A stretch of DNA of 37,263 bases from an uncultured Candidatus Saccharibacteria bacterium (GCA_964526535.1 CAZGIU010000001.1:1-37263); one strand, 5' to 3'; counted from the stretch's first letter, positions 3,531-37,179 are shown. Translations and numbers: made by a program. The notes: generated from the letters alone by a model not told the origin.

Positions 3531-3952
3531 TTTATTATTATCTTTCTGCTTTTTTCATCTATAAAATCAAACTCAATAAACTTAGTTCTCTTGGGCAAAA
3601 AACTTTTTATATTATTAGCCCACTCAATAACAGAGATTCCGCTAAAATCATCAAAAATCTCAGAAAGGCCAAGGTTTTGCGCTTCTTTTTCATTCTCTAT
3701 CCGATACATATCCATATGATAAAGTTTTTTTAAGCCATTTATCTTAATATTATATTCTTTGATTAAATTAAAGGTTGGACTCTGAACTTCTTCTTTAATT
3801 TTAAAATAAGAAGCTATTCCTTTAACAAAAGTTGTCTTGCCTCCGCCTAAATCACCGATTAAAGCTAAAACATCACCACCTAATAAATTTTGGGCAACTT
3901 CCTTAGCCACTTTTTGAGTATTTTCTTCTGATTTAGAGGTTATGATCTTCAT
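3527..3952 (-). CDS. tsaE: tRNA t6A37 biosynthesis ATPase TsaE (141 aa)
   Basis: P-loop 'GDLGGGKTTFVKG', followed by 'SPTFNLIKEY' and 'YHMDMYRI', typical of TsaE/YjeE. Confidence 0.88.
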   Translation of the reverse strand: MKIITSKSEENTQKVAKEVAQNLLGGDVLALIGDLGGGKTTFVKGIASYFKIKEEVQSPTFNLIKEYNIKINGLKKLYHMDMYRIENEKEAQNLGLSEIFDDFSGISVIEWANNIKSFLPKRTKFIEFDFIDEKSRKIIIK

Positions 3953-5858
3953 AGTCTTTTTTAGATTTTAACCCGTAAAGATAAATTAGAAAAGCAGAGG
4001 AAATAATAATTAAGATTAGACCTAAATAAAAATATGGATTATTAGACTTTTCCTTTTTGGCCTCAAACACTAAATAAGGTTCTTTAAAGTCAATCTTTCG
4101 CCAACTAGAGGCTCTGGCTATTTTCTTAGGCTTTTTAGGTTTTGTCCATAAAAGCTTAAAATCAGGTTGATATCTTGGCAAAACTCGCAAACCTGTTTTT
4201 GACAAAGAAACAATACCAGTAATTTCCACTAAATCATTTTTATAGGTTCTTGGTTTTTTAATACCAGTAAGTTTTGTAATGTAGATTCTTATAGTGCCTG
4301 TTCCGTCAGAAATGTAAAAAGTTTTACCAGAAGTTTTAACTATTCTACCTTTTACAGTCACTAACCTGCCCTGATAGGCTGAAATGTCTTTTATGTTTAT
4401 TTTAGCTGCCAAGGGCGGTCCACGATATTCAATAATTCTTATATCTTGGGCTCCTTTAATTTTAACTCTTTTTTCGCCATAAATTTGTGATAATTCTCCA
4501 AAAACTTCGATATAATCACCAACTTTTAATTGAGGATAATTTTTATACCAACAATATATCTGGATACCGGAACTTTCATCCTGAATATAAAAATAAGTAT
4601 TGGCTAATATTTTTGGTAAAACAGAAACTATACCCCTGGTTATAATTAAATAACCCTTGGGCAATTTTTTTATTTCAGAAATTGGTAAATTATAGATAGG
4701 AGCTTCTTTAAGTTGAGGAATTATTAAAATATCAGAATCTTTTTGGGGCAACAAACGAAAGCTCCCATTCCAACTACTAATAATGCCAGAAATTTCTGCC
4801 CAATCACCAGTTTTCTTTTTAGGTAAATTTATTCCTAAGCTATCTTTAACATAAATTTTTATAGGACCAGAGTCATCATCTACATAAAAAGTGTCGCCAG
4901 AGGTTTCAATAATTTTACCCTTGATTTTGACTAAGGCACCTTCGTAATCACTAAATTCAGCTGTTTTAATGTTAAAAAATACTGGCTCTTCATTTTCCTT
5001 GATTTGACTTTCGGAAATGTCAGGAATTTTAATTTCTTTTTCGCCATAATATGTAGTGACTTGACCCCTAATTATTAATTTACTGCCTATTTTTATATTT
5101 TCTGGCCAAGAGTCATTAGTTAATCTTATACGTAAACCACCACTTTCATCTTGAATATAAATACAATTTTCAAAAAGCTTATTTGGCCCTGAAGTTACCA
5201 AGCCACTAATTTTAACTTCATTTATACGATTTTTAGCTTCTTTAATGCTTGATATTTCTGTCTCTGAACTGTTAGGACTTTTAGGGGTAGCAATATTTTT
5301 TTCAAAATCTTTAAGATTAGAACCAATAATAGCTGTTTGCCAATCATAGCTTTTGGTACCATCTCCAGAGACTAAAACCCTTTCCATGGAGGCTTTATAA
5401 TCAGTTTTATTAATACCAGCCAAGGGCTTTTTGCCATTACCAGCAACATCTATTGAATTGCCCACAGAATCTTTTAGTTCAACTTTAAGTAGGTTATTAG
5501 AAAGAGTAACGGCTGTAGTTACCCAGTCTGGCTCAACATCTAAAATGCTTTTATTTGAAAATTTTGAATAATTAGCGATTAAAAAATAGCTCGAAGGAGA
5601 TATTTTTTTACCCTGAGGAATTATTAAATCAGCACCGCTAGTTGCTGCTCCAGAAATTATCCAACCAGAAAGGTCTATCTCCTTATCTGTTAAATTCCTA
5701 AGCTCCAGCCATTCATCAGCTGAAGATAAAGAAGAGCCTTGCCACATTATTTCATTGATAATAATAGTTTTATTTTCCTGAGCAGAAATAAAACCATAAT
5801 TACCAATAATAATCGAAAAATAAAAGCTTAATAGCAAAAATGAAAAGATTTTTTTCAT
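3933..5858 (-). CDS. Secreted, C-terminally membrane-anchored lamin-tail-domain (LTD) protein with four OB-fold-like modules (641 aa)
   Basis: Signal peptide MKKIFSFLLLSFYFSIIIGNYGFISAQ. LTD motif 'IIINEIMWQG...ADEWLELRNLTDKEIDLSGW'. Two copies of a two-module unit: 'YIQDESGGLRIRL...GQVTTYYGEKEIKI' / 'GDTFYVDDDSGPIKIYV...GSFRLLP' and 'YIQDESSGIQIYC...GELSQIYGEKRVKI' / 'GKTFYISDGTGTIRIYI...TGLRVLP'. Basic stretch, then a TM helix 'YFYLGLILIIISSAFLIYLYGL' at the C-terminus. No nuclease domain recognised. Confidence 0.75.
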   Translation of the reverse strand: MKKIFSFLLLSFYFSIIIGNYGFISAQENKTIIINEIMWQGSSLSSADEWLELRNLTDKEIDLSGWIISGAATSGADLIIPQGKKISPSSYFLIANYSKFSNKSILDVEPDWVTTAVTLSNNLLKVELKDSVGNSIDVAGNGKKPLAGINKTDYKASMERVLVSGDGTKSYDWQTAIIGSNLKDFEKNIATPKSPNSSETEISSIKEAKNRINEVKISGLVTSGPNKLFENCIYIQDESGGLRIRLTNDSWPENIKIGSKLIIRGQVTTYYGEKEIKIPDISESQIKENEEPVFFNIKTAEFSDYEGALVKIKGKIIETSGDTFYVDDDSGPIKIYVKDSLGINLPKKKTGDWAEISGIISSWNGSFRLLPQKDSDILIIPQLKEAPIYNLPISEIKKLPKGYLIITRGIVSVLPKILANTYFYIQDESSGIQIYCWYKNYPQLKVGDYIEVFGELSQIYGEKRVKIKGAQDIRIIEYRGPPLAAKINIKDISAYQGRLVTVKGRIVKTSGKTFYISDGTGTIRIYITKLTGIKKPRTYKNDLVEITGIVSLSKTGLRVLPRYQPDFKLLWTKPKKPKKIARASSWRKIDFKEPYLVFEAKKEKSNNPYFYLGLILIIISSAFLIYLYGLKSKKDYEDHNL

Positions 5859-8175: not shown

Positions 8176-9900
8176 GTGGCAACTTCTCAAAAAAGGATAG
8201 AAGATATTTTGTTAAAGGCTGGCGTTATTCAAAACCAGCTATTAGATGCTAAAGCAGAACAGAAAAAAAGTGGCAAACCATTAGTTGAAATCCTAAAAGA
8301 AAAGAAAGCTTTTTCTGAAAAAGATTATGTAAAAATAAGAGCTGAACTTTTAGGAGTTCCCTTTGTAGATTTATCAAGTCTAACTATTGAACAAAATATC
8401 CTAAAACATATCCCAGAAGAAGTTGCAAAAAAATATCAAATTGTTTGCTTTGAAATAAACAAAGATACAAAGGCCCTAAAAATAGCAACCATTAAACCTG
8501 AAGATTATGTTACTTTAGAATTTTTACAAAAAATTATTGGCCAAGAAATTGAACCTTATCTGGCCATTAACTCAGAAATAGTAAAAATATTAAATCAATA
8601 CTCAGGCATCCAAACTGAGGTTGAAAAAGCTATCGAGAGCGAAAATTTATTACCTTCTAACAAGAAAGAGATTGAAAAAATAACTAAAGTTGATGCTATT
8701 CGGCAAGACTCTCCTTTGGCCAAACTGGTTGATACTATTTTTGAACACGCTGTAATTGGCGGAGCTTCTGATATTCACATAGAGCCAACCACTAAAACCT
8801 TAGATGTTAGATATCGCTTAGATGGAATTTTAAGAAGAACCATTACATTACCTATGGACATTCATAAAGCGGTAGTTTCAAGAATTAAGATACTTTCTGA
8901 TCTAAAAATCGATGAAGCTAGAATCCCTCAAGACGGACGTTTTCATGGAGTTTATGGTGACAGAGAAATTGACTTTCGTGTTTCCACTTTTCCCACCGTT
9001 AATGGTGAAAAAGTAGTAATGCGTATTTTAGATAAATCAACTGGTATTTTAACGTTAGAACAATTAGGCGTTAAGGGAAAACCTTATGATATTCTACAAA
9101 CCAACATTCATAAACCTCATGGCATGACCTTAGTTACTGGTCCTACTGGTGCTGGTAAATCTACCACTTTATATGCCATTATAGGTATTCTTAATAATGT
9201 GGGAATTAATATAGTAACCCTGGAAGACCCAGTTGAATATTATATTGACGGTATAAACCAATCTCAAGTTAATCACGATATAAAATATGATTTTGCTACC
9301 GGCATTAGAGCTATAGTCCGCCAAGATCCAGACTGTATCATGATTGGTGAAATCCGTGACTTTGAAACAGCTGACATGGCAGTTCACGCCGCTTTAACTG
9401 GCCATATTGTACTTTCAACTCTTCATACCAATAATGCAGCTGGGGCCATACCTCGACTTATTGACATGGGAATAGAACCCTTTCTTTTATCTTCATCTAT
9501 TAATGTAGTTATTGCTCAAAGACTAGCTAGAAAAATTTGCCCACATTGCAAAACTGAATTAAAAGTGCCTAAAGAAATCATATCTAATCTCAAAATCGAT
9601 TTATCAATCTTGCCAAAAAACTATCAAGATAAACTTAAAGGCAAAGATTCTATTAGTATTTTCAAGGGTGAAGGTTGTAACTTATGTAATCAATCTGGCT
9701 ATAAAGGCCGGATTGGCATATTTGAAATATTGCCATTAGAAGGAGAAGCCGAAGACCTGACTAATCAAAAAGTAGACGCCAAAAAAATAGAAGAAGCCGC
9801 TATTAGAAATGGCATGATAACCTTAAAACAAGATGGTGTAATGAAGGTTTTAGATGGCATCACCTCTATGGAGGAATTCTGGAGAGTTATTTCAGAATAA
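8176..9900 (+). CDS. pilB: Type IV pilus / type II secretion assembly ATPase, GspE/PilB family (574 aa)
   Basis: T2SSE N-terminal domain, Walker A 'GPTGAGKST', 'IMIGEIRD', 'TGHIVLSTLHTN', and the tetracysteine motif 'CPHC...CNLC'. GTG start with a Shine-Dalgarno sequence. Confidence 0.93.
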   Translation: MATSQKRIEDILLKAGVIQNQLLDAKAEQKKSGKPLVEILKEKKAFSEKDYVKIRAELLGVPFVDLSSLTIEQNILKHIPEEVAKKYQIVCFEINKDTKALKIATIKPEDYVTLEFLQKIIGQEIEPYLAINSEIVKILNQYSGIQTEVEKAIESENLLPSNKKEIEKITKVDAIRQDSPLAKLVDTIFEHAVIGGASDIHIEPTTKTLDVRYRLDGILRRTITLPMDIHKAVVSRIKILSDLKIDEARIPQDGRFHGVYGDREIDFRVSTFPTVNGEKVVMRILDKSTGILTLEQLGVKGKPYDILQTNIHKPHGMTLVTGPTGAGKSTTLYAIIGILNNVGINIVTLEDPVEYYIDGINQSQVNHDIKYDFATGIRAIVRQDPDCIMIGEIRDFETADMAVHAALTGHIVLSTLHTNNAAGAIPRLIDMGIEPFLLSSSINVVIAQRLARKICPHCKTELKVPKEIISNLKIDLSILPKNYQDKLKGKDSISIFKGEGCNLCNQSGYKGRIGIFEILPLEGEAEDLTNQKVDAKKIEEAAIRNGMITLKQDGVMKVLDGITSMEEFWRVISE

Positions 9901-9914
9901 GAAACAATCTGTCT

Positions 9915-10355
9915 ATGCTCAAAAAAGGTTTTACTGTAATGGAAATGATTTTAGTAATGAGTGTTCTGGGTTTTTTAATGGCTATGGTTATTCCCAATAT
10001 GAGTCGATGGTATGCCTCTTTAAAAATTAACAATGCCAAAAGAGATTTAATTTCTAACATAAGGTTAGTTCAGCAATACACTGTAACTTCCCAAATAAAT
10101 CACTCTGTTAAACTTGACGTGGCTCAAAACAGATACCAACTAATTAAAAAAAATGAACCTGACCAAGTTTTAAAAACTATTTTTTTGCCAAATAGCATAA
10201 GCTTTAATCTAATAACTCTTAATCCCCTAAACAATGAAATAGAATTTAATGCAGCTGGAGTCCCCTCATCTATTGGCAATATAAACCTAACCAATAACTA
10301 TGGAATCATCAAAGGCATAGAAATAACTCCAAGTGGTTTTGTAAAGGAGATATAA
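9915..10355 (+). CDS. Prepilin-type minor pilin, GspH/FimT-like (146 aa)
   Basis: Class III signal 'MLKKG|FTVMEM' (Gly-1, Glu+5) followed by a hydrophobic helix. The C-terminal pattern '...IEFNAAGVPS...IEITPSGFV' resembles GspH/FimU. Confidence 0.75.
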   Translation: MLKKGFTVMEMILVMSVLGFLMAMVIPNMSRWYASLKINNAKRDLISNIRLVQQYTVTSQINHSVKLDVAQNRYQLIKKNEPDQVLKTIFLPNSISFNLITLNPLNNEIEFNAAGVPSSIGNINLTNNYGIIKGIEITPSGFVKEI

Positions 10356-10364
10356 AAAATTCTT

Positions 10365-10769
10365 ATGAAAAAAGGCTTTACCCTGATAGAAGCAATTATG
10401 GCGATGGCAATTTTTTCGGTTGGCATAATGGCAGTCCTAACGGTTTTCCCAAAAGGAATTAGTCTAGGTCGCGAAGCTAAAGAAATTACCGTTGCCACTC
10501 AACTTGCTCAGGAAAAAATAGAAGAAACTTTATCGCTAAGTTATGACGATATTCCAATTGGTCAGGTAGAAGCAAGATCTAAAATAGAAACTGACCCGGG
10601 GAGTCAATTTTATATTTATGAGAGAGAGGTAAATTCGGAACTAGTAGATGAAAACTTACTTGTTACCAATGATGATTTAGGTCTAAAAAAAATACAGGTT
10701 AAGGTATATTGGCAACAACCAGATGGTGAAAAAAACGTAGAATTAATAAGACTTTTAAATAGGCCGTAA
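10365..10769 (+). CDS. Prepilin-type minor pilin, GspI/PilV-like (134 aa)
   Basis: 'MKKG|FTLIEA' prepilin signal, 'ATQLAQEKIEE', and 'KKIQVKVYW' near the C-terminus. Confidence 0.72.
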   Translation: MKKGFTLIEAIMAMAIFSVGIMAVLTVFPKGISLGREAKEITVATQLAQEKIEETLSLSYDDIPIGQVEARSKIETDPGSQFYIYEREVNSELVDENLLVTNDDLGLKKIQVKVYWQQPDGEKNVELIRLLNRP

Positions 10770-11318
10770 ATGAACAAGAAAGGTTTCACAATTATTGAAG
10801 TTATAACTTCAGCTTCCATCGGAGCCATTGTTTTAGCAGTAGTTTATCTTAGTTTTTTAGCTGGTCAACAAATCCATCAAAGAGGAGTTATGAACGCTGA
10901 ATTAGCTCAAAATGGAAGAATCGCCCTTGACAGAATAACCAGGGAACTTAGACAAACAGGAGAAATAACTACTGCCCTTGAAGAAAACGAACCAATAACA
11001 CCTCAAACAGAAATTCAATTCGAAGATGGTCATAATGAAGAAATTCAATATATAACTTATTATTTAGATGGGACAGAACTTAAAAGAGAAATCGGTCATT
11101 ACTACTTCCCTTCTGATCCCAATACTTGGGTTTATGCGACCTCTACAGATTCTTTTGGTAATTTAGCTAATTATGAAATAGACGACGAACAAACCGTTTC
11201 ACAATTTATTACAAAGCTTACTTTTTATGGTATTTCTACTATAAATATAAACTTAACTGTTAGTAAAAACGACCGAAGTATTAACTTAAAAACTCAGGTT
11301 TTAGGTAGAAATTTATGA
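10770..11318 (+). CDS. Prepilin-type minor pilin, GspJ/PilW-like (182 aa)
   Basis: 'MNKKG|FTIIEV' prepilin signal, 'GRIALDRITRELRQ', and 'ITYYLDGTELKRE', typical of PulJ/PilW. Its start abuts the previous stop with a 0-nt gap. Confidence 0.72.
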   Translation: MNKKGFTIIEVITSASIGAIVLAVVYLSFLAGQQIHQRGVMNAELAQNGRIALDRITRELRQTGEITTALEENEPITPQTEIQFEDGHNEEIQYITYYLDGTELKREIGHYYFPSDPNTWVYATSTDSFGNLANYEIDDEQTVSQFITKLTFYGISTININLTVSKNDRSINLKTQVLGRNL

Positions 11319-12529
11319 TAATGGATAAAATAAATAATCAAAAGGGCGTAGTTTTAATATCTGTTATGCTAACCTTGGTACTAATTGGAGCCTTAGCAGC
11401 TTTTTTTATAGGCATTATGATATCTGAATTTAGAATATCAACTTCTAATAGAAGCGGGATAGTAAGTTTCTATGTAGCTGAATCTGGCATTCAGGAAGCT
11501 ATTTTCAGGGTTAAAAATGACCCAATTATTAGAGAATATTTTGATAATGGCACTATAGACTATACTTTTTCTAGAAGCCCCTTTATCTTAGCCAACACCT
11601 CCTATACAGTAACCATTTTAGCTGTCGTGCCAGGCGAAGCTGAGATAATAGCCACTGGCAAATACCAATCAGGCTTTTTTAACTCTCAGAGAATTGTTAA
11701 AATAAGAATTGTTACCGGCATAGCCCAGCCTCCAGATTGGCAAAATGCCTTATATGGAGCCAGAAATGTGGATATTTCTGGCAGTAGGATAAGAGTAGAT
11801 GGTGACATTTATGCAGCCAGAGGCGTCAATATCTGGAGCAGATCGCAGGTTAATATTTTGGGTGATGTTTATGCTATGAGTGATATTAGAGTATGGGGAT
11901 CATCCTCTTTAAATGTCTCAGGCGAAAAAAGGGCTAATAATTTTCCACCTCCTCCTGCTATTACGATTGAAATGCCTATGATAGATTTTGATTCAACTGA
12001 CCAAAGCTCTCTTTATAATCAGGCCACTCAAATTTATACACAACAACAGTTTTCAAATCTTTTATCAAGTAGACCAAATTTAACCTTAAACGGTATAATA
12101 TATGTAACTGGTAATATAGACATCAAAGAAACAAGAGTAACCGTCAATGGCGCTTTAATTGCTGATGGCAATGTAAAAATAGGAATGGTTAGCCCTAAGA
12201 GAGGTGAACCAAACCCTTCATTAACGGTTATTAGTCCGGGCGAAGGACAAATCTCAGGCCTACTGGCTAAATCAAAAATAGAAATAGGAGTTCATGCTAA
12301 AAGTATTTATATAGACGGACTTGTCTATTCTTTAGCTGAAACTAAATTCTTTAATTTTTCAGATACTGCTATTATTAATGGTGGCATAATTGGGGGCGAA
12401 ATAGCTATTACAAATTGTGCCGGTGCAAATCTTAAAATCAATTATAATCCTGATTACATAAGATCACTAATCGAAATTAATCAAGCCTCTCCCCCAGTAG
12501 AAATCGAACATTGGGAAGAAAGTTATTAA
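11315..12529 (+). CDS. PilX/GspK-like large pilus tip/minor-pilin protein with beta-helix-like repeats (404 aa)
   Basis: 'QKGVVLISVMLTLVLIGALAAFF...YVAESGIQEA' matches a PilX_N-type N-terminus (no Glu+5). Three tandem ~20-aa repeats: 'ARNVDISGSRIRVDGDIYA / ARGVNIWSRSQVNILGDVYA / MSDIRVWGSSSLNVSGEKRA'. ATGA overlap with the preceding gene. Confidence 0.65.
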   Translation: MIMDKINNQKGVVLISVMLTLVLIGALAAFFIGIMISEFRISTSNRSGIVSFYVAESGIQEAIFRVKNDPIIREYFDNGTIDYTFSRSPFILANTSYTVTILAVVPGEAEIIATGKYQSGFFNSQRIVKIRIVTGIAQPPDWQNALYGARNVDISGSRIRVDGDIYAARGVNIWSRSQVNILGDVYAMSDIRVWGSSSLNVSGEKRANNFPPPPAITIEMPMIDFDSTDQSSLYNQATQIYTQQQFSNLLSSRPNLTLNGIIYVTGNIDIKETRVTVNGALIADGNVKIGMVSPKRGEPNPSLTVISPGEGQISGLLAKSKIEIGVHAKSIYIDGLVYSLAETKFFNFSDTAIINGGIIGGEIAITNCAGANLKINYNPDYIRSLIEINQASPPVEIEHWEESY

Positions 12530-12558
12530 GTGAAATTGATTTGTAAATAAGTTATAAT
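12530..12558 (+). promoter_or_regulatory. Possible internal promoter before pilM (GTGAAA-17 nt-TATAAT)
   Basis: Perfect -10 TATAAT at 12553-12558, with a weak -35 GTGAAA at 12530-12535 and 17-nt spacing. This is the only 50-nt gap inside the pilus cluster. Confidence 0.3.
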
Positions 12559-12579
12559 ATAAAGAAGCAAACTTAAATT

Positions 12580-13650
12580 ATGTCATTTTTCAAAAACATA
12601 TTTACCAGCATAAAACTGCCATTTGGTTTAGATATTGGCTATACATCTGTTAGAGCTGTTCAGTTAGAAAAAAAAGGCAAATTAGTTCATTTGGCTGGTT
12701 ATGGAGAAACTCCAATTAAAGAAGGGGTGGTCTCTAGAGATAATATTAAAACCGATGAACTTGCTTTTGCTATTAAGCAAGTTTTAAGGGAAAGTAAAAT
12801 TAAACCAATTTCTTCTAAACAAGTTGTTTGTGCCCTGCCAGAATCAGAAATTTTTATAAAAACACTTCAATTACCCAAAATGGAAGATTCTGAGATAGAA
12901 GAAGTCATTAAGCTTGAAATAGAAAAAATAGTACCTTTCCCAATTGATCAATTATACTTAGATTACAAAAGAGTGCGCGAAGGTAGTCCAAAGGAAAATG
13001 ACAATATTATTGTAGTAGCTGGCCAACAAAAAATGATTCATTCATATATGGAGGCTCTAAAAAAAGCTGAGTTAGAAGTAATCGCTCTTGATGTAGAGCC
13101 AGCCGCTGTAGCTAGGGCTTTAATTAAAAACAGTGAAACAGAGAAAGACGCCTATGCTATTATCGATATAGGCGCAGATTCTACCACCATTACTCTCTAT
13201 GATTATGGTTCAATCCAAATTACAGGCTCAACTCATATTGCTGGCAATGAAATAACTGATAGCCTAGCTCAGGAGTTAAATTTAGAAAAATCTAAAGCTG
13301 AGGAAATTAAAAGACATATTATTAACTCTGACAGAAGAATAAAGCCTCAGTTATTTGAAAAAGCTGTTAAGCCTGTTTTAGAAAAACTATCTAAGGAAGT
13401 GGAAAGATCAATAAATTATTACCTTAATTTTATGAAAGACCCTCATGATATAAAAAAAATAATTGTTACTGGTGGCAACGCTCAACTTGGAGGTATCACA
13501 GATTTTTTTACTAAAAAATTTGATATTAAAACAGAGGTGGGAAATCCTTGGAACAATGTAACTGCCTATCCACTCAAAGCTATACCTAAAATTAAGGCTT
13601 CTCTTTACACCACCGCTATTGGCCTAGCCTTAAGGGAATTGGTTGAATAA
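12580..13650 (+). CDS. pilM: Type IV pilus assembly protein PilM (actin-like ATPase fold, 356 aa)
   Basis: 'GLDIGYTSVRAVQL', 'IIDIGADSTTITL', 'VTGGNAQLGGI', and '...ALRE' near the C-terminus. Followed by pilN and pilO. Confidence 0.88.
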   Translation: MSFFKNIFTSIKLPFGLDIGYTSVRAVQLEKKGKLVHLAGYGETPIKEGVVSRDNIKTDELAFAIKQVLRESKIKPISSKQVVCALPESEIFIKTLQLPKMEDSEIEEVIKLEIEKIVPFPIDQLYLDYKRVREGSPKENDNIIVVAGQQKMIHSYMEALKKAELEVIALDVEPAAVARALIKNSETEKDAYAIIDIGADSTTITLYDYGSIQITGSTHIAGNEITDSLAQELNLEKSKAEEIKRHIINSDRRIKPQLFEKAVKPVLEKLSKEVERSINYYLNFMKDPHDIKKIIVTGGNAQLGGITDFFTKKFDIKTEVGNPWNNVTAYPLKAIPKIKASLYTTAIGLALRELVE

Positions 13651-13651
13651 A

Positions 13652-14224
13652 ATGGTTAAATTAAACTTATTACCACCAAAAGAAAGAACCAAAAAACAAA
13701 CTATAAAAGAAAATTTTATTGGTTTGTTGCTATCATTAGTAACGATAGCAATTATAATAACCTTTGCTGTTTCTTTAATATTCATTCAAAATAGCATAAC
13801 CTCTGAAACTAAAATCACGGAAGACAATATTAAAAAACAAGAAGAAAGAAACTCGGCCTATAAAGAGGTTGAAAATACTATCATAGAGCTAAATGAAAAT
13901 ATTGAACTAATAACCAAGCTTGAAAAAACTAATGTAACCTGGTCAAAAATACTGGAAGAATTTAGGAATAAAATACCGCCAGAAGGAGAGCTAACGACCA
14001 TAACAGCCGCTCTACAAACCACGTCTGGTAAAAAAACTCAAACTTCTGGACCTATTATTATAACTTTAAATGGTACTGCCACAGGCTTATTCCCCATTGC
14101 CAAATATAGGGAATCATTAGCTACTTCAGAATATTTTGACTATGTTGATTTTGAAGCTGCTAATTCATCCCAAGGTGGCTTTATGGATTTTACCTTTAAA
14201 ATTAGGATAAAAAACAATGGGTGA
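13652..14224 (+). CDS. pilN: Type IV pilus assembly protein PilN (190 aa)
   Basis: The 'MVKLNLLPPKER' motif, followed by a single TM helix and a coiled coil. The track's start at 13643 is a TTG overlapping pilM; ATG 13652 gives the canonical N-terminus. Confidence 0.8.
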   Translation: MVKLNLLPPKERTKKQTIKENFIGLLLSLVTIAIIITFAVSLIFIQNSITSETKITEDNIKKQEERNSAYKEVENTIIELNENIELITKLEKTNVTWSKILEEFRNKIPPEGELTTITAALQTTSGKKTQTSGPIIITLNGTATGLFPIAKYRESLATSEYFDYVDFEAANSSQGGFMDFTFKIRIKNNG

Positions 14225-14795
14225 GAAAAAATTTCTTTATTATGCTCTTGGACTAACAACAATAATTGTTTTAATTATTGCCTATTTTTATATTTATCCG
14301 GAAGTTAATAAAATAAATAATGCTAAAAAAAATCTGGCCACCAAGCAAGCAACACTAATCTCATTAGAACAAAAAGAAACTATATTAAAGCAATTATCTA
14401 GAGATTATGATAAATATAGAGACAAAATAGATATTATAACCAGCTTATTCCCTTCCACTAAAGAAATATCCGACTATTTGACCCAGCTTGAAGGCTTATC
14501 ATCAAAAAGTAATATTAGAATCTTATCAGTTAAAGTTGCTAGCCAACAACAATCAAGCAAATCAACAGTGATTGTCCCAGACAAAACTCAACTTATTAAA
14601 GATGGTAATATGTACAAATTGCCACTTGATGTTCAAATAATAGCTAACAATTATTCAGATACCATCTCTTTTATTGCCAATTTGGAAAAAATATCTAGAT
14701 TTACAACAATTAGCAAGATAGCTATAAAAGAAAGCCAAGAAAATGGTAGAAATTTAATAGAAACAACTTTTAGTTCATTTATTTATGTAAAGTAG
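14217..14795 (+). CDS. pilO: Type IV pilus assembly protein PilO-like (192 aa)
   Basis: Single N-terminal TM helix, a coiled coil and a C-terminal alpha/beta domain. Assigned from its position after pilMN; 8-nt overlap with pilN. Confidence 0.65.
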   Translation: MGEKKFLYYALGLTTIIVLIIAYFYIYPEVNKINNAKKNLATKQATLISLEQKETILKQLSRDYDKYRDKIDIITSLFPSTKEISDYLTQLEGLSSKSNIRILSVKVASQQQSSKSTVIVPDKTQLIKDGNMYKLPLDVQIIANNYSDTISFIANLEKISRFTTISKIAIKESQENGRNLIETTFSSFIYVK

Positions 14796-31589: not shown

Positions 31590-32516
31590 CTAAAAAAGCA
31601 CGAAATTTGATTTTTTTAGTTTTTCAGAATCTTTTTTAATTATCTCTAAAAGCTCATCTATTCTTTGATAACTTTTTTCATAATCAGACTGTATAGCGGA
31701 AGAATCTATAGAGACAAAAGGATTATCGATACTTGAAAGAGCCTCTTGATTACCATTCTCAATGGCCAACGATAACTCTTTAACTGTTTTTAAGACTTTA
31801 TCGTGAGTTTCTTTCATACTTTGAGGTACTTTTAATCTCTCTAAAGCTTCTTGCCACCTTTTAACTGGATTTTTAAGAGCTACTAGGCCTTGCTCTTTAT
31901 TTAGGGCAGATAAGTCTTTATTGTTAAGCTTACGAGATTCATTTAAAGCGTCTCTGAAGAAATCTAAAGCACTATTAAACAAATCAATACTATAAATACC
32001 TTCTTCTGAGAGTTTTTCCCCAAGCTCCAGATACTCCTTAATATCATTTGATAATTGCTGAGTTTTTTTTGGAGAAGTTAAATTAGATAGAACATAAAGA
32101 TTAGCCTCTGCTTTAGTTTTAATTTTGTCATATATTTCTCTTTGATCTTCTAAATCTTTAGTTAAGGAATATAGCTTATTCTCATCAAAATTAACTGCAT
32201 TATCATAAATTTCTTTATTATCAAGACCAGTTAACCAAACCTCAGAAGCTATAATAATTTCATTAACTTTTTCGGAATAGAAAACCACCCTAGAACCATA
32301 CCAAAAACCATATAAAACAATTCCAAGAATTATTAAGACAAAAAAACTTATTATAATAACTATTTTTTTTATATTACTTGGAGGTAAACTATTGTAAGAA
32401 CTGCTGTTAAAACTTGGTTGCATCTGGCCAGTATTGGCCTGGTTAAGTTGAGTAGATTGATTATTGTTAGGATTTATTTGCCTAGAAAGACCATCAAGGT
32501 TTAAATTATCGGTCAT
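31590..32516 (-). CDS. Single-pass membrane protein, paralog B (308 aa): N/Q/S-rich N-terminal tail, TM helix, helical ectodomain, C-terminal KKSNFVLF
   Basis: Paralogous to 32600-33475. Shared motifs are 'YGFW.GS', 'KEY..L', 'P..(A/M)K(D/E).HDK(L/V)(I/L)K', 'NPF/DPF' and terminal 'LKK(S/T)NFVLF'. The start is set at ATG 32516 (MTDNLNLD), preceded by AAGGAGAAAA exactly as in paralog A. The track's TTG start at 32552 overlaps a TATAAT box. Confidence 0.6.
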   Translation of the reverse strand: MTDNLNLDGLSRQINPNNNQSTQLNQANTGQMQPSFNSSSYNSLPPSNIKKIVIIISFFVLIILGIVLYGFWYGSRVVFYSEKVNEIIIASEVWLTGLDNKEIYDNAVNFDENKLYSLTKDLEDQREIYDKIKTKAEANLYVLSNLTSPKKTQQLSNDIKEYLELGEKLSEEGIYSIDLFNSALDFFRDALNESRKLNNKDLSALNKEQGLVALKNPVKRWQEALERLKVPQSMKETHDKVLKTVKELSLAIENGNQEALSSIDNPFVSIDSSAIQSDYEKSYQRIDELLEIIKKDSEKLKKSNFVLF

Positions 32517-32566
32517 TTTTCTCCTTGCTTTACTTATCATATTATACAACAAAAAAAATAAAAAAA

Positions 32567-32599: not shown

Positions 32600-33475
32600 T
32601 TAGAATAAAACAAAATTGGTTTTTTTAAGTTCTGGGGCTTCCTTTAGAATTTCATCTTTTAGAGATTTAATTCTATTCTCTTTATCTTCGAGATATTTAG
32701 ACATTTCGTCAAAAGGGTCTTCTATATCATTAAAAATATCGTAGTTACCATCCCCTAAGGCTTTGGTAACATCTCCTACCAATTTGATTAATTTATCATG
32801 AACATCTTTGGCACTTTCAGGGGGAGTAATTTTTTCAAGTTCATCTAACCAATTATTAAACATCTTCTCCATCTCAACCATCATTTCATCCTCTGAAGAT
32901 GAGGAATACATTAAATCAGACATACCTTCAACTACACCAACAGTAGCTTCCATAATTTGAATTCCATATTTAGAGGATTCTCCGAACTCTTTAGCTAATT
33001 GGGTGTATTCTTTTAAATTCTTGCCTAAACCAGAAGCCTTGCCTGGTACCCCTTTTTTAGCAACTTCTTGATAATACTTATCAATTTCGGTAGCAAATTC
33101 TTCTGTCTCATCTTTTAATTTTTTAAGCTCAGCATCAAAAGAACCACTGGCAAACTGATCAAAACTTAAAGAACTTAAATCACTATTCTTTAAAACTTCT
33201 ACCTTCTTTTCAATGTCATTAACAATTTCTTCTGCTCTAGTAGCATAAGAAGCTACTTGCGAACCATTCCAAAAACCATAGCCAACAACAGAAATTAACA
33301 AAACAACTGCTACAACAATTCCAATCAAAATATTTTTATTAGGACCTGAGGAACCACTGCTTGGCATGCCTTGTGGTGGCTGACTGCCAGGTGGCATAAA
33401 ACTAGAATCCTGAGCTGGGGGCATTGGCGCCTGAGTTGGCTGTTGAGGCACCTGGGGATTTAAATTTTCCGCCAT
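32600..33475 (-). CDS. Single-pass membrane protein, paralog A (291 aa): P/Q-rich N-terminal tail, TM helix, helical ectodomain, C-terminal KKTNFVLF
   Basis: 'MAENLNPQVPQQPTQAPMPPAQDSSFMPPGSQPPQGMPSSGSSGP' followed by TM helix 'ILIGIVVAVVLLISVVGYGFW'. Shine-Dalgarno AAGGAGAAATT before the ATG. No family recognised. Confidence 0.6.
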   Translation of the reverse strand: MAENLNPQVPQQPTQAPMPPAQDSSFMPPGSQPPQGMPSSGSSGPNKNILIGIVVAVVLLISVVGYGFWNGSQVASYATRAEEIVNDIEKKVEVLKNSDLSSLSFDQFASGSFDAELKKLKDETEEFATEIDKYYQEVAKKGVPGKASGLGKNLKEYTQLAKEFGESSKYGIQIMEATVGVVEGMSDLMYSSSSEDEMMVEMEKMFNNWLDELEKITPPESAKDVHDKLIKLVGDVTKALGDGNYDIFNDIEDPFDEMSKYLEDKENRIKSLKDEILKEAPELKKTNFVLF

Positions 33476-33489
33476 AATTTCTCCTTTTG

Positions 33490-36003
33490 TTAATTATTTT
33501 TTATATTATATAGTAAATCTTGTTTATTAACAACAAATTTCTCACCTTTTTTGATTTCATCTTTAATAATTTTATCAGCTAAAAAGTTTTCCAAAATATC
33601 CTGAATAGCCCTTCTCATCGGCCTGGCACCAAACTCAGGCTGATAACCTTTTTCAATCAAAATATTTAAAACATCTTTGTTAATTTCAATTAAATAACCC
33701 TTGCTTTCAAAATCTTTTATCATTTTAGCAATTATATTTTTAGCAATTTGTCGTAGATTATCTTGAGTAAGCGGTTTAAACATTACAACCTCATCGAAAC
33801 GATTTAAAAACTCTGGCGTAAAAATACCTTTTTTCTGAAGAGACTCAAAAACCTCTTCTTTAAGATCTTGCCAATCTCTATTTTTAGCTAATCCCTCTCT
33901 TATCATATTAGCCTCAGCATTAGAAGTTGTAATAATAATTGAATTTGTAAATTTAACTATATTGCCCATGCCATCTTTAGTGTAGCCTTCATCAAAAATT
34001 TGAAGAAAAATATTGAGAATATTTTTATGAGCTTTTTCGAGTTCATCTAATAAAATTACAGAAAAGGGTTTTTGCTTAATTTCCTTAACCAATTGCCCGC
34101 CCTCAAGCTCATCTAAACCTGTTTGTTTTTGACCCAAGAAATCTTTAATTGAGGAGGGTTCTTGATATTGATTCATATCCATTCTAATGATAGCTTTTTC
34201 ATCACCAAAATAAGACTGAGCTAAGGTTTTAGCAACTTCTGTTTTACCAACTCCTGTCGGACCTAAAAACAAGAAAACTCCAATAGGCCGAGCCGAATCA
34301 TTAACCTGAGCTCTCTTCCTTTTAAGAGCGTTAACAATAGCCGAGATGGCCTCATCTTGGCTTACTACTCTTTGGTGCATAACCTCTTCTAACTTCAATA
34401 AAGAATTTTTTTCTTCTTTTGCAACTGTAGCAACTGGGATCGATAAAATACCTTCACAAACTCTACTAACTATCTGTTTATCAATTACATCCAAGCTATC
34501 TCTTTTAGCGCAAGAAATTACATTTTCCATTAAGTCTATGGCTTTGCGAGGAAATTCTCTATCATCAATAAATTGATCAGCTATCCGATAAATTTCCTTT
34601 AAAGCATTGTAGGTTAGTCTAACTTGATATTTACTGAAAAAATAAAGGCTTAAGTCAGCCAAAACCTTAATAGTTTGATCTTTGGTTGTTGGCGGTATCT
34701 TAATATTTTCAAATAAACCTGCAAAAGAAGATTTAGGCGAAAGATAGGATTCATAATTTCTTTGAGTAGTAGCGCCAATTACCCTAATCTCACCCGACTG
34801 AAGATAAGGACTTAAAACTTCGGTGGCATCCACAGCCCCAACCTTTCCATTGCCACCTTGAAATAAAGTATGAATGTTGTCGATAAATAAAATTATATTA
34901 CCAGCCTGGGCTGCATCTTGGAGAACCATTATAAGCCTTTGTTGAATTTCTTGAGGATTCTGAACTCCAGCCACTAAAGCTTCAGTGTTAAGCTGAATAA
35001 TTCTCTTGTGTTTTAACTCTTTTGTGGTTTCATAACTAAAAAGCTTAGCAGCTAAAGCATTAACAATGGTTTTTTTGCCTGAACCCGGCTCACCAATTAA
35101 CAAACAATTATTATTACCGGGCTTAGAAAGTACAGTTTCTATCTGAGAAATAATATGTTTTCGGCCAACTACATAAGATTCATCAAAAAATTTCGGACCA
35201 TTAATATGCATACCATAGATATCTAAATATAAGGTGTAACCATAAGCCCAGTCTTCACCAATACCAGTAACATTAGTTTTAAGTTTTTCAATTAAAGGTT
35301 TTTGATATTTAGCTTTATTAAAAACTGAGTTAGCCCAAAATAAGATATTCCTAATATCATTTAATTCTAATTCTAAAGTAGCGCCAAAGCTATCAAAATC
35401 AGGTAAAAGTTTAATAAAACCATAAAAAATATCAGCTGTCGTTAATCTTTTTTCTCCTTCAGCCAAAGCACTCTCTATAGAGTTATCTAAAATCAGACCT
35501 AGAGATTCTTGACCATTTGAAGCTGAAATCTGAGTTAAGATTATTGATAGATGACTATCGGTAACACCCATTTCGTTTAAAGCAAAAATTACTCTTTTAG
35601 ATGAAACTATGTCAGAAAAAAGTTTACCCAAATCACAGTTATTAAGATCATACTTGCCAAAAATTCTGGCTACTTCCAAATCAGCTATGGCAAAAACATT
35701 AAAGTTATTTTTGTCTGGTGAGATTTCCCTTAACCTCTCTTCTTGGCGAAAATATAATCTTAAAAAGACATAAATAATAAAAGATTTTACTCCTAAAAAT
35801 CCTAAAAATTTAAAAACATAGATCAGGGCTTCAAAATTAACCAGCTTTAAATAATCAAGCAAAATTAAAATATATGAAAAAATACCTAATAACCAAATTG
35901 CCTTTAAAACAATGAAAATATTCTCAGATTTAAAATAATGCCACAAATTAGCAGTCTGAATATAACTATAATCTTTTTGATAATCTATTTGATATTTGCT
36001 CAT
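33490..36003 (-). CDS. Membrane-anchored Hsp100/Clp-like double AAA+ protein (837 aa); D1 degenerate, D2 intact, no M-domain
   Basis: aa 27-85 are hydrophobic (2-3 TM helices). Clp_N-like repeats follow. D1 reads 'LLIGEPGSGKKTIV...ILFIDNIHTL...VIGATT...FPRKAIDLM'. D2 reads 'FLGPTGVGKTE...VILLDELEKAH...ITTSN...EFLNRFDEVVMF...GARPMRRAI'. Confidence 0.85.
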   Translation of the reverse strand: MSKYQIDYQKDYSYIQTANLWHYFKSENIFIVLKAIWLLGIFSYILILLDYLKLVNFEALIYVFKFLGFLGVKSFIIYVFLRLYFRQEERLREISPDKNNFNVFAIADLEVARIFGKYDLNNCDLGKLFSDIVSSKRVIFALNEMGVTDSHLSIILTQISASNGQESLGLILDNSIESALAEGEKRLTTADIFYGFIKLLPDFDSFGATLELELNDIRNILFWANSVFNKAKYQKPLIEKLKTNVTGIGEDWAYGYTLYLDIYGMHINGPKFFDESYVVGRKHIISQIETVLSKPGNNNCLLIGEPGSGKKTIVNALAAKLFSYETTKELKHKRIIQLNTEALVAGVQNPQEIQQRLIMVLQDAAQAGNIILFIDNIHTLFQGGNGKVGAVDATEVLSPYLQSGEIRVIGATTQRNYESYLSPKSSFAGLFENIKIPPTTKDQTIKVLADLSLYFFSKYQVRLTYNALKEIYRIADQFIDDREFPRKAIDLMENVISCAKRDSLDVIDKQIVSRVCEGILSIPVATVAKEEKNSLLKLEEVMHQRVVSQDEAISAIVNALKRKRAQVNDSARPIGVFLFLGPTGVGKTEVAKTLAQSYFGDEKAIIRMDMNQYQEPSSIKDFLGQKQTGLDELEGGQLVKEIKQKPFSVILLDELEKAHKNILNIFLQIFDEGYTKDGMGNIVKFTNSIIITTSNAEANMIREGLAKNRDWQDLKEEVFESLQKKGIFTPEFLNRFDEVVMFKPLTQDNLRQIAKNIIAKMIKDFESKGYLIEINKDVLNILIEKGYQPEFGARPMRRAIQDILENFLADKIIKDEIKKGEKFVVNKQDLLYNIKNN

Positions 36004-36004
36004 A

Positions 36005-36376
36005 TTAAATAAAAATATAAATAAATGATATTAAAGCAATAGCCGGCATAAAAAACCAAAAAACCAAGCTAAAAGCCAAAAATAAAATATAGAAAAATAG
36101 AAAAACTAAATAGACGATAATCAAGAAAAATCTTAAAACAAAACCAACTAAGCGGGAAATAAGGGTATCAGCTAAGGATTGAAAAAAATTATCAAGACCT
36201 CTGCCTTGCTGACCAACAATTCTTTTCCAGGGTTTAAAAATATTAGTTATTAAGTCAATCGGCGAAAAATAATTTGAAGTATGTATAAAATAGGCCGACA
36301 AAAAATCGAACAAAGAAGCAATTCCCTTTGAATACCACCACCTAAATAATGTAGGTAAAAAAGTAAAATATACCAT
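36005..36376 (-). CDS. Hypothetical polytopic membrane protein (123 aa)
   Basis: An aromatic-rich N-terminus 'FRWWYSKG...FKPWKRIVGQQGRG' is followed by very hydrophobic helices (FFLIIVYLVFLFFYILFLAFSLVFWFFMPAIALISFIYIFI). The stop lies 1 nt from the Clp-like ATG. Confidence 0.5.
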   Translation of the reverse strand: MVYFTFLPTLFRWWYSKGIASLFDFLSAYFIHTSNYFSPIDLITNIFKPWKRIVGQQGRGLDNFFQSLADTLISRLVGFVLRFFLIIVYLVFLFFYILFLAFSLVFWFFMPAIALISFIYIFI

Positions 36377-36408: not shown

Positions 36409-37179
36409 TTAACTAACAAAATTAAGATAATTTATCCTTTTAAATCTAAGAGGCTTTGCAACCACAATAAACGGGAAACTTTCTATTAAAGTATTAAATT
36501 TATTAACGGATTTATTATAAAATTTCCTAGAATATAAAATTCTCTCCTCAGTATCGAAATAAGCTTCAGATAGCTTCTTAAAGCTTTCAGAGGCTCTAAT
36601 TTTGGGATTACTTTCTAAGATTATAAAAACTTCGCTTGAGACACTCTCATTTTTTATTTGACTCGAACTAGAAACAAAATCTTTTTTAGCCCTACTTAGG
36701 GAAATTAATGTCTGAAGCTCTTTTTCATACGAAGCAAAGGCTTTAACCACATCTAACATCTGAATTATCAAGTCATGCCTTCTTTTGAGTTCTGCGTCAA
36801 TATTACTTAAAGAATTTTTGACCCTCTGCCTTAAAACAACCATCCTGTTATACATCGATAATATTACAGTCCCTAAAATTAAGGTGTTCCCAAATGTTAA
36901 CAAAAGCCCCATCAATTCCTTGCTAAACGAAAAGAGATATTCTGCTGCAAAAACAGAAAGAGTAAAGGCAATGGCAATAATAAGATGAATGGAATAAAGA
37001 ATTAACTTTCCTCTATAGAAACTATCAACATACTGGCTTCTGTTATCTCTACTAACTATTAAGGGGTGATTAGTATCTTCTGAAATTACCAACTTACCAT
37101 TCTTCTTTTTTATAACTCCATAAAAAAAGGCATTAATATTTGGTCTTAAAACATACTCGCTTTTCCTATACTTTTGCAT
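36409..37179 (-). CDS. lemA: LemA-family protein with extra N-terminal domain and two TM helices (at least 256 aa; frame stays open to the window edge)
   Basis: LemA core: 'LRQRVKNSLSNIDAELKRRHDLIIQMLDVVKAFASYEKELQ...', 'ESNPKIRASESFKKLSEAYFDTEERILYSRKFYNKSVNKFNTLIESFPFIVVA'. The 28 codons upstream of ATG 37179 (37180-37263) contain no stop, so the true start may lie outside the window. Confidence 0.8.
   Translation of the reverse strand: MQKYRKSEYVLRPNINAFFYGVIKKKNGKLVISEDTNHPLIVSRDNRSQYVDSFYRGKLILYSIHLIIAIAFTLSVFAAEYLFSFSKELMGLLLTFGNTLILGTVILSMYNRMVVLRQRVKNSLSNIDAELKRRHDLIIQMLDVVKAFASYEKELQTLISLSRAKKDFVSSSSQIKNESVSSEVFIILESNPKIRASESFKKLSEAYFDTEERILYSRKFYNKSVNKFNTLIESFPFIVVAKPLRFKRINYLNFVS

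Follow-up and report, generated by a model that had tools for sequence, protein, structure and literature searches.

The Hsp100/Clp proteins are the textbook example of AAA+ machines that thread their substrates by means of pore-loop tyrosines: ClpB/Hsp104, ClpA and ClpX depend on this Tyr for translocation, exchange of the Walker-B Glu for Gln or Asn blocks ATP hydrolysis but not nucleotide binding, and an IGF/VGF loop is needed for docking on ClpP. In the two-ring AAA+ proteins NSF, p97 and Pex1-Pex6, nucleotide binding by one ring serves mainly assembly, and the work is done by the other. Torsins, which reside in the eukaryotic endoplasmic reticulum and nuclear envelope, are lumenal proteins with a single AAA+ module, and their Arg finger is supplied by LAP1/LULL1. 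This work concerns a gene for a membrane-anchored Hsp100/Clp-like ATPase of 837 amino acids (aa), located at positions 33490..36003 (-) of a 37,263-nt DNA stretch (the window) from an uncultured Candidatus Saccharibacteria bacterium (GCA_964526535.1, CAZGIU010000001.1:1-37263), and a gene at 36005..36376 (-) for a small membrane protein of 123 aa directly upstream of it. An earlier reading of the DNA sequence (the original prediction) had described the ATPase as a Clp relative with one active ring tethered to the membrane. The ATPase belongs to an uncharacterised Hsp100 subfamily that spans the Patescibacteria (Candidate Phyla Radiation, CPR), is almost restricted to them and has a dedicated membrane partner, likewise uncharacterised. 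The window protein shows all the traits by which we propose to define this subfamily: a transmembrane (TM) segment, an intact second AAA+ module (D2), a first AAA+ module (D1) that lacks the Arg pair, pore loops devoid of Tyr, the absence of both an M-domain and a ClpP loop, and a protein with WWY, PW(K/R) and R-G-R motifs encoded upstream or fused to the ATPase.

The ATPase open reading frame (ORF) is real and open throughout, and its product is a class-I Hsp100 composed of a TM hairpin, a divergent Clp_N domain, D1, D2 and a D2-small domain. Pfam matches were obtained to AAA (aa 300-414), AAA_lid_9 (aa 441-500), AAA_2 (aa 572-739, E = 3e-47) and ClpB_D2-small (aa 745-824, E = 2e-20), and the domain set of a two-AAA+ class I Clp protein together with the Hsp100 fold was recovered by Pfam, hhalign and Foldseek. 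By sequence the best match is ClpB (Thermus thermophilus ClpB, 1qvr, E = 1.6e-119; 484 bits to the NCBIfam model TIGR03346). In phmmer comparison with PDB sequences, the T. thermophilus and E. coli ClpB proteins align in two blocks and ClpA aligns as a single collinear block over aa 278-824; D2 scores 286 bits against ClpB D2 in HMMER. The AlphaFold2 (AF2) monomer, built on a multiple sequence alignment of 48 sequences, has a mean predicted local distance difference test (pLDDT) value of 87.5 and a predicted template modelling (pTM) score of 0.79. The top Foldseek matches of this model were ClpC, ClpB and ClpA, with full-length ClpC aligned over 793 columns (E = 1.7e-49).

The N-terminus of the ATPase contains two strong hydrophobic segments (Kyte-Doolittle 19-residue mean peaking at 2.46), a feature absent from the canonical ClpB/ClpC matches in the hydropathy comparison, and the AF2 model has helices at aa 27-51 and 61-90 (35734..35925, (-)), where pLDDT is ~82-94. 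The two or three hydrophobic helices anticipated by the original prediction thus resolve into a membrane hairpin of two helices, with no third one in either hydropathy or AF2 model. The hairpin is followed at ~aa 100-232 (35308..35706, (-)) by a helical N-domain that AF2 draws as an eight-helix bundle. Pfam did not detect Clp_N in the window ATPase, but hhalign comparison of the family N-region profile with canonical Clp_N gave a probability of 97.1% (E = 6e-11, 121 columns), which upholds the Clp_N-like character proposed earlier; the Foldseek alignment to ClpC also covers this domain. Two insertions that give other Hsp100s their partners are absent, as had been proposed. In the alignment with ClpC and ClpB there is no M-domain: against the ClpB sequences P0096 and P0114 the ATPase has a gap of well over 100 alignment columns, and there is also no insertion at the site of the short ClpC M-domain. 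The ClpP-docking insertion carrying LGF/VGF in the ClpC sequences P0032 and P0052 is missing from the ATPase and from the whole family, and from D2 sensor-1 to the Arg finger the sequence resembles ClpB, without the ClpP loop. A GIF tripeptide at aa 725-727 was considered as a cryptic ClpP loop and rejected, because it aligns with the helix that precedes the Arg finger in ClpB and ClpC.

The motif states of the two AAA+ modules were called in register from a HMMER alignment to ClpB (1qvr and E. coli ClpB) and a MAFFT alignment of 62 sequences. In D1 (aa 278-510; 34474..35172, (-); Pfam AAA and AAA_lid_9), a module that is catalytically degenerate and yet conserved, every catalytic element is substituted. 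Walker A reads GEPGSGKKT at aa 304-312 (35068..35094, (-)) instead of the canonical GEPGVGKTA; K310 corresponds to the canonical Lys and is kept, and K311 takes the place of the Mg-coordinating Thr. The pore-loop position reads AGVQNPQE (34948..34971, (-)) instead of AGAKYRGE, with Asn at the Tyr position. Walker B reads FIDNIH (34870..34887, (-)) instead of FIDELH, with N376 replacing the catalytic Glu, and the Arg-finger position reads SFAGLFEN (34705..34728, (-)) instead of ALERRFQP, with Gly-Leu replacing Arg-Arg. All of these substitutions had been listed in the original prediction; the codons of K311 and N376 lie exactly where it placed them, and its residue range for the D1 pore loop, aa 344-356, was displaced by one and should be 345-357. 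In D2 with its C-terminal small domain (aa 511-826; 33526..34473, (-); Pfam and HMMER), the catalytic motifs are all intact: Walker A GPTGVGKTE (34237..34263, (-)), Walker B LLDELEK (34033..34053, (-)), sensor-1 TTSN, the Arg finger R735 in EFLNRFD (33799..33801, (-)) and sensor-2 GARPMRR with R794 (33610..33630, (-)), each in the canonical state that was first read by eye. The D2 pore-loop position (aa 624-636; 34096..34134, (-)) reads GQKQTGLDELEGG in place of the canonical GAPPGYVGYEEGG; as proposed, it contains neither GYVG nor any aromatic residue in both alignments. The conserved aromatic residues of both pore loops, KYR in D1 and GYVG in D2, are therefore missing, and judged by its motif pattern the protein has lost the D1 catalytic residues and retained those of D2.

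The original prediction treated the ATPase as a protein of one genome and suggested a survey of CPR genomes for shared substitutions and neighbours. Such a survey revealed a family-wide pattern and a conserved small upstream gene: the ATPase is a member of a Patescibacteria-wide family and not a peculiarity of one genome, a point missed at first reading. Protein searches returned eight full-length orthologues with 44-63% identity and broader relatives with 30-40% identity in Patescibacteria metagenome-assembled genomes (MAGs) of Portnoybacteria, WWE3 and Saccharimonadales; the named relatives carry the automatic labels "ClpC" or "ClpA" in databases. A further set of loci (the L series) was collected by searching one genome of each GTDB species for the peptide pattern ILFID[ND]IH, and includes Saccharibacteria, Kaiser-, Berkel-, Buchanan-, Komeili-, Magasanik-, Falkow- and Veblenbacteria as well as Parcubacteria MAGs. 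About 15 loci are labelled "uncultured Gammaproteobacteria" (L032, L036-L038, L040, L042, L044-L047, L051, L058, L060, L063, L064). Most of these contigs carry the CPR-type two-gene module, and because their motif strings are identical to those of Komeili-/Magasanikbacteria loci, the Gammaproteobacteria labels are probably wrong.

The counts cover 83 distinct sequences, nearly all of them from Patescibacteria/CPR MAGs; a hydrophobic segment at the N-terminus is found in 83/83, the set being so defined. D2 Walker A GKT, the D2 Arg finger and the D2 sensor-2 Arg are each kept in 83/83, and D2 Walker B DE in 82/83. The D1 P-loop G[KR] is likewise present in 83/83, with GK[ST] in only 44/83; D1 Walker-B DE occurs in 13/83, a figure to be read with the knowledge that the scan pattern inflates the DN/DD counts among the L-series loci, and the D1 Arg pair (RR) in 0/83. 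An aromatic residue anywhere in the pore loop was found in 4/83 for D1 and in 9/83 for D2, where it occupies the canonical position only in L049 (GYEG), and the D2 pore loop is shorter by at least 2 residues in 51/83. In the protein-search set, which is free of the pattern bias, D1 of the WWE3/Saccharimonadales type keeps GKT[ST], DE and one Arg. D1 degeneration is thus graded across the family, with the window protein at the extreme where all four D1 elements are lost. Among the eight orthologues the mean pairwise identity is 72% for the D2 large domain, 63% for the D1 large domain (63-65% for the D1 module overall), 45% for the N-domain and 36% for the TM region, and none of the D1 P-loop glycines G304, G307 and G309 varies in 48 sequences. 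The substitutions are not due to chance, since the same states recur in orthologues and the conservation of D1 matches that of D2; by this measure D1 is under purifying selection and is not decaying.

The soluble Hsp100s of non-CPR bacteria that the scan pattern also caught retain GYVG in D2 and lack a hydrophobic N-terminus, and the combination of features is therefore specific to the CPR family. Several of these proteins among L054-L088 (e.g., L059, L065, L072, L078), from Bacteroidales, Sutterella, Acidobacteriota and Treponema, have D1 Walker B as FIDD/NIH instead of DE and mostly keep the D1 aromatic residue, so that a missing D1 Walker-B Glu does not by itself distinguish the CPR family. 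One Hsp100 of Dojkabacteria (L071) combines D1 FIDNIH with a retained D2 GYVG, and has neither a hydrophobic N-terminus nor a small-gene neighbour; this soluble CPR relative stands apart from the membrane family. At another locus, L009, a fragment-like 54-aa ORF at 10344-10508 matches ClpB_D2-small and lies ~1.7 kb downstream of the family ATPase.

The second component of the system is the 123-aa protein, identified as an ATPase partner by synteny and fusions. In the window, the TAA stop codon of the small gene lies one base before the ATG of the ATPase gene, and the two genes are probably translationally coupled. The small protein has no Pfam, NCBIfam or PADLOC family, and its model has no fold match in the PDB (Foldseek, best E = 3.5). 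Its N-terminal part is helical and rich in aromatic residues (WWY, F-x-P-W-K-R) and leads into a G-R-G loop; the C-terminal part consists of a hydrophobic stretch of ~40 residues with W107 and P111, which we read as a hairpin. The conserved residues are W13, W14, Y15, F37, S38, P49, S74, R75, G78, R82, W107 and P111. An exhaustive search of a library of 1.8 billion proteins yielded 383 representative clusters, the best 150 of which are all stand-alone proteins of ~120 aa. With a hidden Markov model (HMM) of the small protein, a separate ORF was found directly upstream of the ATPase gene, abutting or overlapping it, in the window and at ~45 loci; one locus has a partial copy at a contig end. 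In the reciprocal check, two divergent small proteins (25% identity) were each followed by a family ATPase with a 4-nt overlap. The HMM found the small protein beside no non-CPR Clp gene among the loci, and no match at L058 and L063 despite the membrane-anchored ATPase there. All-against-all ORF clustering of 57 loci produced no other conserved neighbour, PPDK, GlyRS and other genes near the ATPase being lineage-specific only.

In other genomes the two proteins are joined. Along its entire length the small protein is homologous to the N-terminal part of the ATPases P0046 (E = 1.7e-10), P0034 and P0018, and the HMM match falls inside the ATPase ORF itself in L030 and L064, the latter a fused form from a Gammaproteobacteria-labelled contig. 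Small proteins of the Komeili-/Magasanik type carry the variant motif F-x-P-M-F-G-Q-Y-D...G-R-x-I-S-F, and because the N-terminus of the WWE3/Saccharimonadales-type ATPases carries the same motif, these ATPases are fusions too. In the simple fusions, basic residues flank the hydrophobic stretch of ~40 residues and the cytoplasmic ATPase follows directly, which indicates an N-in/C-in hairpin; in other fusions (P0018, P0019, L030) there are four hydrophobic segments, corresponding to the small-protein hairpin and the ATPase's own. In P0046, P0034 and L064 only ~60 residues lie between the TM hairpin and the conserved linker G-x-G-x-D-W-x-Y-G, so that Clp_N is reduced or absent in these simplest fusions, a hint that docking of the partner may be among the functions of the N-domain. 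Because the genes are adjacent at ~45 loci and fused elsewhere, the ATPase and the small protein form one module, and on this comparative evidence the 123-aa protein is a dedicated, conserved partner of the ATPase.

No curated family fits the ATPase, since all of its NCBIfam scores are far below the equivalog cut-offs: 483.8 bits for ClpB (TIGR03346, cut-off 1232), 425.2 for ClpA (TIGR02639, 993), 408 for ClpK (1900), 398 for ClpG (1900) and 366 for TssH (885), which places it outside ClpV/TssH, ClpK and ClpG as well. Like ClpC and ClpA, it has the order N-domain, D1, D2, D2-small, with ClpC as the best full-length Foldseek match, and it shares with ClpA the collinear alignment that has no M-domain insertion. 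Unlike both, it has a membrane hairpin and no (V/L/I)GF ClpP loop, its D1 is without the Walker-B Glu, the Arg fingers and the Tyr, and its D2 is without GYVG; compared with ClpC in particular, the short M-domain that binds MecA is missing, the D1 Walker B carries DN and there is no RR pair. The missing ClpP-docking loop sets it apart from ClpE as well. The ATPase resembles ClpB/Hsp104 in the region from D2 sensor-1 to the Arg finger, where neither has a ClpP loop, but differs from them in being membrane-anchored, in having no long coiled-coil M-domain, and in the loss of the D1 catalytic residues and both pore-loop tyrosines; because the M-domain is absent, coupling to DnaK as in ClpB is not expected.

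Among more distant AAA+ proteins, NSF, p97 and Pex1-Pex6 show the same division of labour between rings that the motif pattern suggests for the ATPase, but they belong to the classic AAA clade and not to Hsp100, keep aromatic pore loops in the active ring and are soluble. In FtsH and Msp1, as in the ATPase, an N-terminal TM anchor sets the AAA+ hexamer against the membrane; in contrast, they contain a single classic-clade AAA module with an aromatic pore loop, FtsH also has a protease domain, and there is no sequence relationship beyond the AAA+ fold. The Torsins differ in that the ATPase has two rings and its own D2 Arg finger (R735) and must be cytoplasmic. There is a weak partial Pfam Torsin match in the ATPase (aa 532-601, E = 4.9e-4), and the likeness appears to be functional only, with no evidence of direct descent: Torsins are related to Clp/Hsp100 D2, membrane-associated and devoid of an aromatic pore loop, and they have membrane-protein partners (see the review PMC5425593). 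Full-text literature searches found no description of a membrane-anchored, tyrosine-less Hsp100 family, and the only paper found that joins Saccharibacteria with Clp genes concerns host genes. The earlier statement that the architecture matches no characterised family thus agrees with both the NCBIfam scores and the literature.

Several features of a working model follow from the motif states. D1 would be a non-hydrolysing assembly or scaffold ring, nucleotide-binding or purely structural, as in NSF-D2 and p97-D1, because its catalytic Glu, its Arg fingers and, in the window protein, also the Mg-binding Thr are lost and the P-loop Gly and Lys are kept. D2 would be the sole ring able to hydrolyse ATP and the only motor. 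With the (I/V/L)GF loop absent, the ATPase would be unable to dock on or feed ClpP. Classical hand-over-hand threading of polypeptides appears unlikely, because neither ring has an aromatic pore-loop residue and the loops drift or shrink across the family. The motifs, the hairpin and the fold thus bear out a membrane-tethered Clp relative with one active ring, and the non-threading behaviour suggested along with it is something that we, too, can only infer. We also infer that the hairpins of the ATPase and the small protein are both N-in/C-in, because both have positively charged flanks and the fusions require such an orientation. Since the hairpin immediately precedes the N-domain, a hexamer would sit under the membrane with its N-domain/D1 face to the bilayer and D2 pointing into the cytoplasm, surrounded by up to 24 TM helices (12 + 12). 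ATP turnover in D2 would then drive conformational work on or through the small membrane partner; in this way a membrane complex could be remodelled, assembled or taken apart, or gated, or membrane proteins could undergo quality control of a weak-grip kind. We favour, with moderate confidence, a D2-powered, membrane-docked remodeller acting on or through the small membrane partner; of the particular mechanistic step we are much less sure. More tentatively, and with doubt prevailing, the system may be a Patescibacteria-specific machine in which a 24-TM ring sits on a two-tier Hsp100 hexamer and the D2 motor does something other than threading; such a machine could gate or drive a channel, or insert, extract or assemble components of the cell envelope or of host interaction.

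A number of observations weigh against the remodeller. The hexamer, nucleotide binding by D1 and contact with the small protein are drawn from sequence, synteny and fusions; AF2 (pLDDT 94.9) draws aa 61-122 of the small protein as one continuous helix and not as a hairpin; and the scan pattern, as mentioned above, exaggerates how often the D1 Walker-B Glu is lost. D2 has the motifs of a complete motor of exactly the type that threads polypeptides. A few family members keep an aromatic residue in the D2 loop, and in the clade of the window protein this loop has the canonical length and a conserved pattern, G-[RKQ]-x-x-x-G-[SL]-[DE]-x-L-E-G-G, so that a modified substrate grip is possible. These last points lead to the main rival, a classical threading unfoldase or extractase, in effect a membrane-anchored ClpB or an analogue of FtsH/Msp1, that grips its substrate by non-aromatic pore-loop residues. 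The complete D2 motor, the conserved D2 loop of the window clade, the retained Clp_N-type substrate/adaptor domain and a fold that is the same as in translocating Hsp100s would all suit such an enzyme, and the inferred topology, with the D1 face towards the membrane, suits extraction. The aromatic pore-loop residues are nevertheless gone from both rings in nearly all of the 83 members, and translocation is lost when the pore-loop Tyr of ClpB, Hsp104, ClpA or ClpX is mutated to Ala; loops this variable, with the D2 deletions counted above (51/83), are unlike a conserved gripping element. We regard threading or extraction by an atypical grip as rather unlikely.

The same drift of the pore loops, taken together with the lost D1 catalysis, could also be read as the mark of an ATP-binding pseudo-enzyme, a scaffold that anchors the small membrane protein or another complex and does little or no mechanical work; non-catalytic Hsp100-like proteins have a precedent in SMAX1/D53, which are among the weak PDB matches. 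Against a scaffold stands the retention of the D2 catalytic residues of Walker A, Walker B, sensor-1, the Arg finger and sensor-2 in 82-83 of the 83 members over very deep divergence, which points to selection on ATP hydrolysis, and this account seems improbable. Still less credence can be given to an anti-phage function like that of the ClpB-like DolB of Dodola: PADLOC does match the D2 region, and that region only, to DolB (8e-34) and PDC-M37B, but the matches represent generic AAA_2 similarity, no partner defence gene is present, and the gene lies among housekeeping genes in many CPR lineages with one fixed neighbour and without the patchiness of defence islands. A defence role was rejected on this genomic context. 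Finally, the single base between the two ORFs and the existence of fused versions might raise the suspicion of a decaying pseudogene, or of a single gene broken up into a small ORF and a Clp ORF by an assembly or frameshift artefact. The ATPase ORF is intact over 837 aa with strongly conserved D1 and D2 and an AF2 pLDDT of 87.5, and the two-gene layout, with its own stop and start codons, recurs in ~45 independent assemblies of different lineages. The comparative data effectively refute this last explanation, to which we assign hardly any weight. The membrane-docked remodeller powered by D2 therefore remains the account that we prefer.

The window is an ordinary chromosomal region of Patescibacteria type with low GC content (~32%). 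Its genes include those for YmdB, RNase Y, TsaE, a MacB-type ABC transporter, UvrC, UvrA, PheST, RmuC and LemA, a type IV pilus cluster, and sugar-nucleotide and glycosyltransferase genes; at L007, ribosomal genes lie near the family ATPase. No clpP, clpX or other Hsp100 gene and no type VI secretion system gene was found within the 37-kb window. In a related genome (L006), clpP lies 6 kb from the family ATPase gene, so that ClpP coexists with the family in at least that genome, where it is presumably served by ClpX. The gene just upstream of the small-gene/ATPase pair, at 36409-37179 (-), encodes a member of the LemA family (E = 5e-27) that contains two hydrophobic segments and has an N-terminal extension of unusual length; this gene is not conserved as a neighbour of the pair, and at L004 its place is taken by a DUF2207 gene. 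Directly downstream of the ATPase gene, at 31590-32552 (-) and 32600-33475 (-), are genes for two paralogous single-TM proteins, 26% identical to each other (E = 6e-30), with Pro/Gln-rich N-termini and a common C-terminal KK[TS]NFVLF; they match no Pfam or NCBIfam family and do not occur beside ATPase orthologues. The type IV pilus cluster at 8176-14795 (+) encodes a PilB-type T2SSE ATPase, two prepilin-type N-methyl proteins, PilM, PilO and unannotated ORFs. At 3933-5858 (-) there is a gene for a 641-aa protein with a Lamin Tail Domain, DUF5689 and several OB-fold matches, which may be a surface DNA-binding or nuclease-type protein.

The subfamily is deeply conserved and has a full D2 motor, yet it is without the tyrosines of both rings, D1 catalysis, the M-domain and the ClpP loop, and in this sense it offers a natural experiment on the capabilities of an Hsp100 motor deprived of the canonical grip. 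The mislabelling of its members as "ClpC" or "ClpA" means that reconstructions of CPR metabolism and proteostasis probably over-call ClpCP/ClpAP proteolysis. The family of the 123-aa partner, with no Pfam model and no PDB fold match, offers an entry point into the system. The family is found in many lineages of Patescibacteria with minimal genomes, where retained genes tend to matter, and if it is indeed a non-threading membrane machine, it would represent a new mode of action for Hsp100 proteins and a new conserved cell-envelope system of the CPR.

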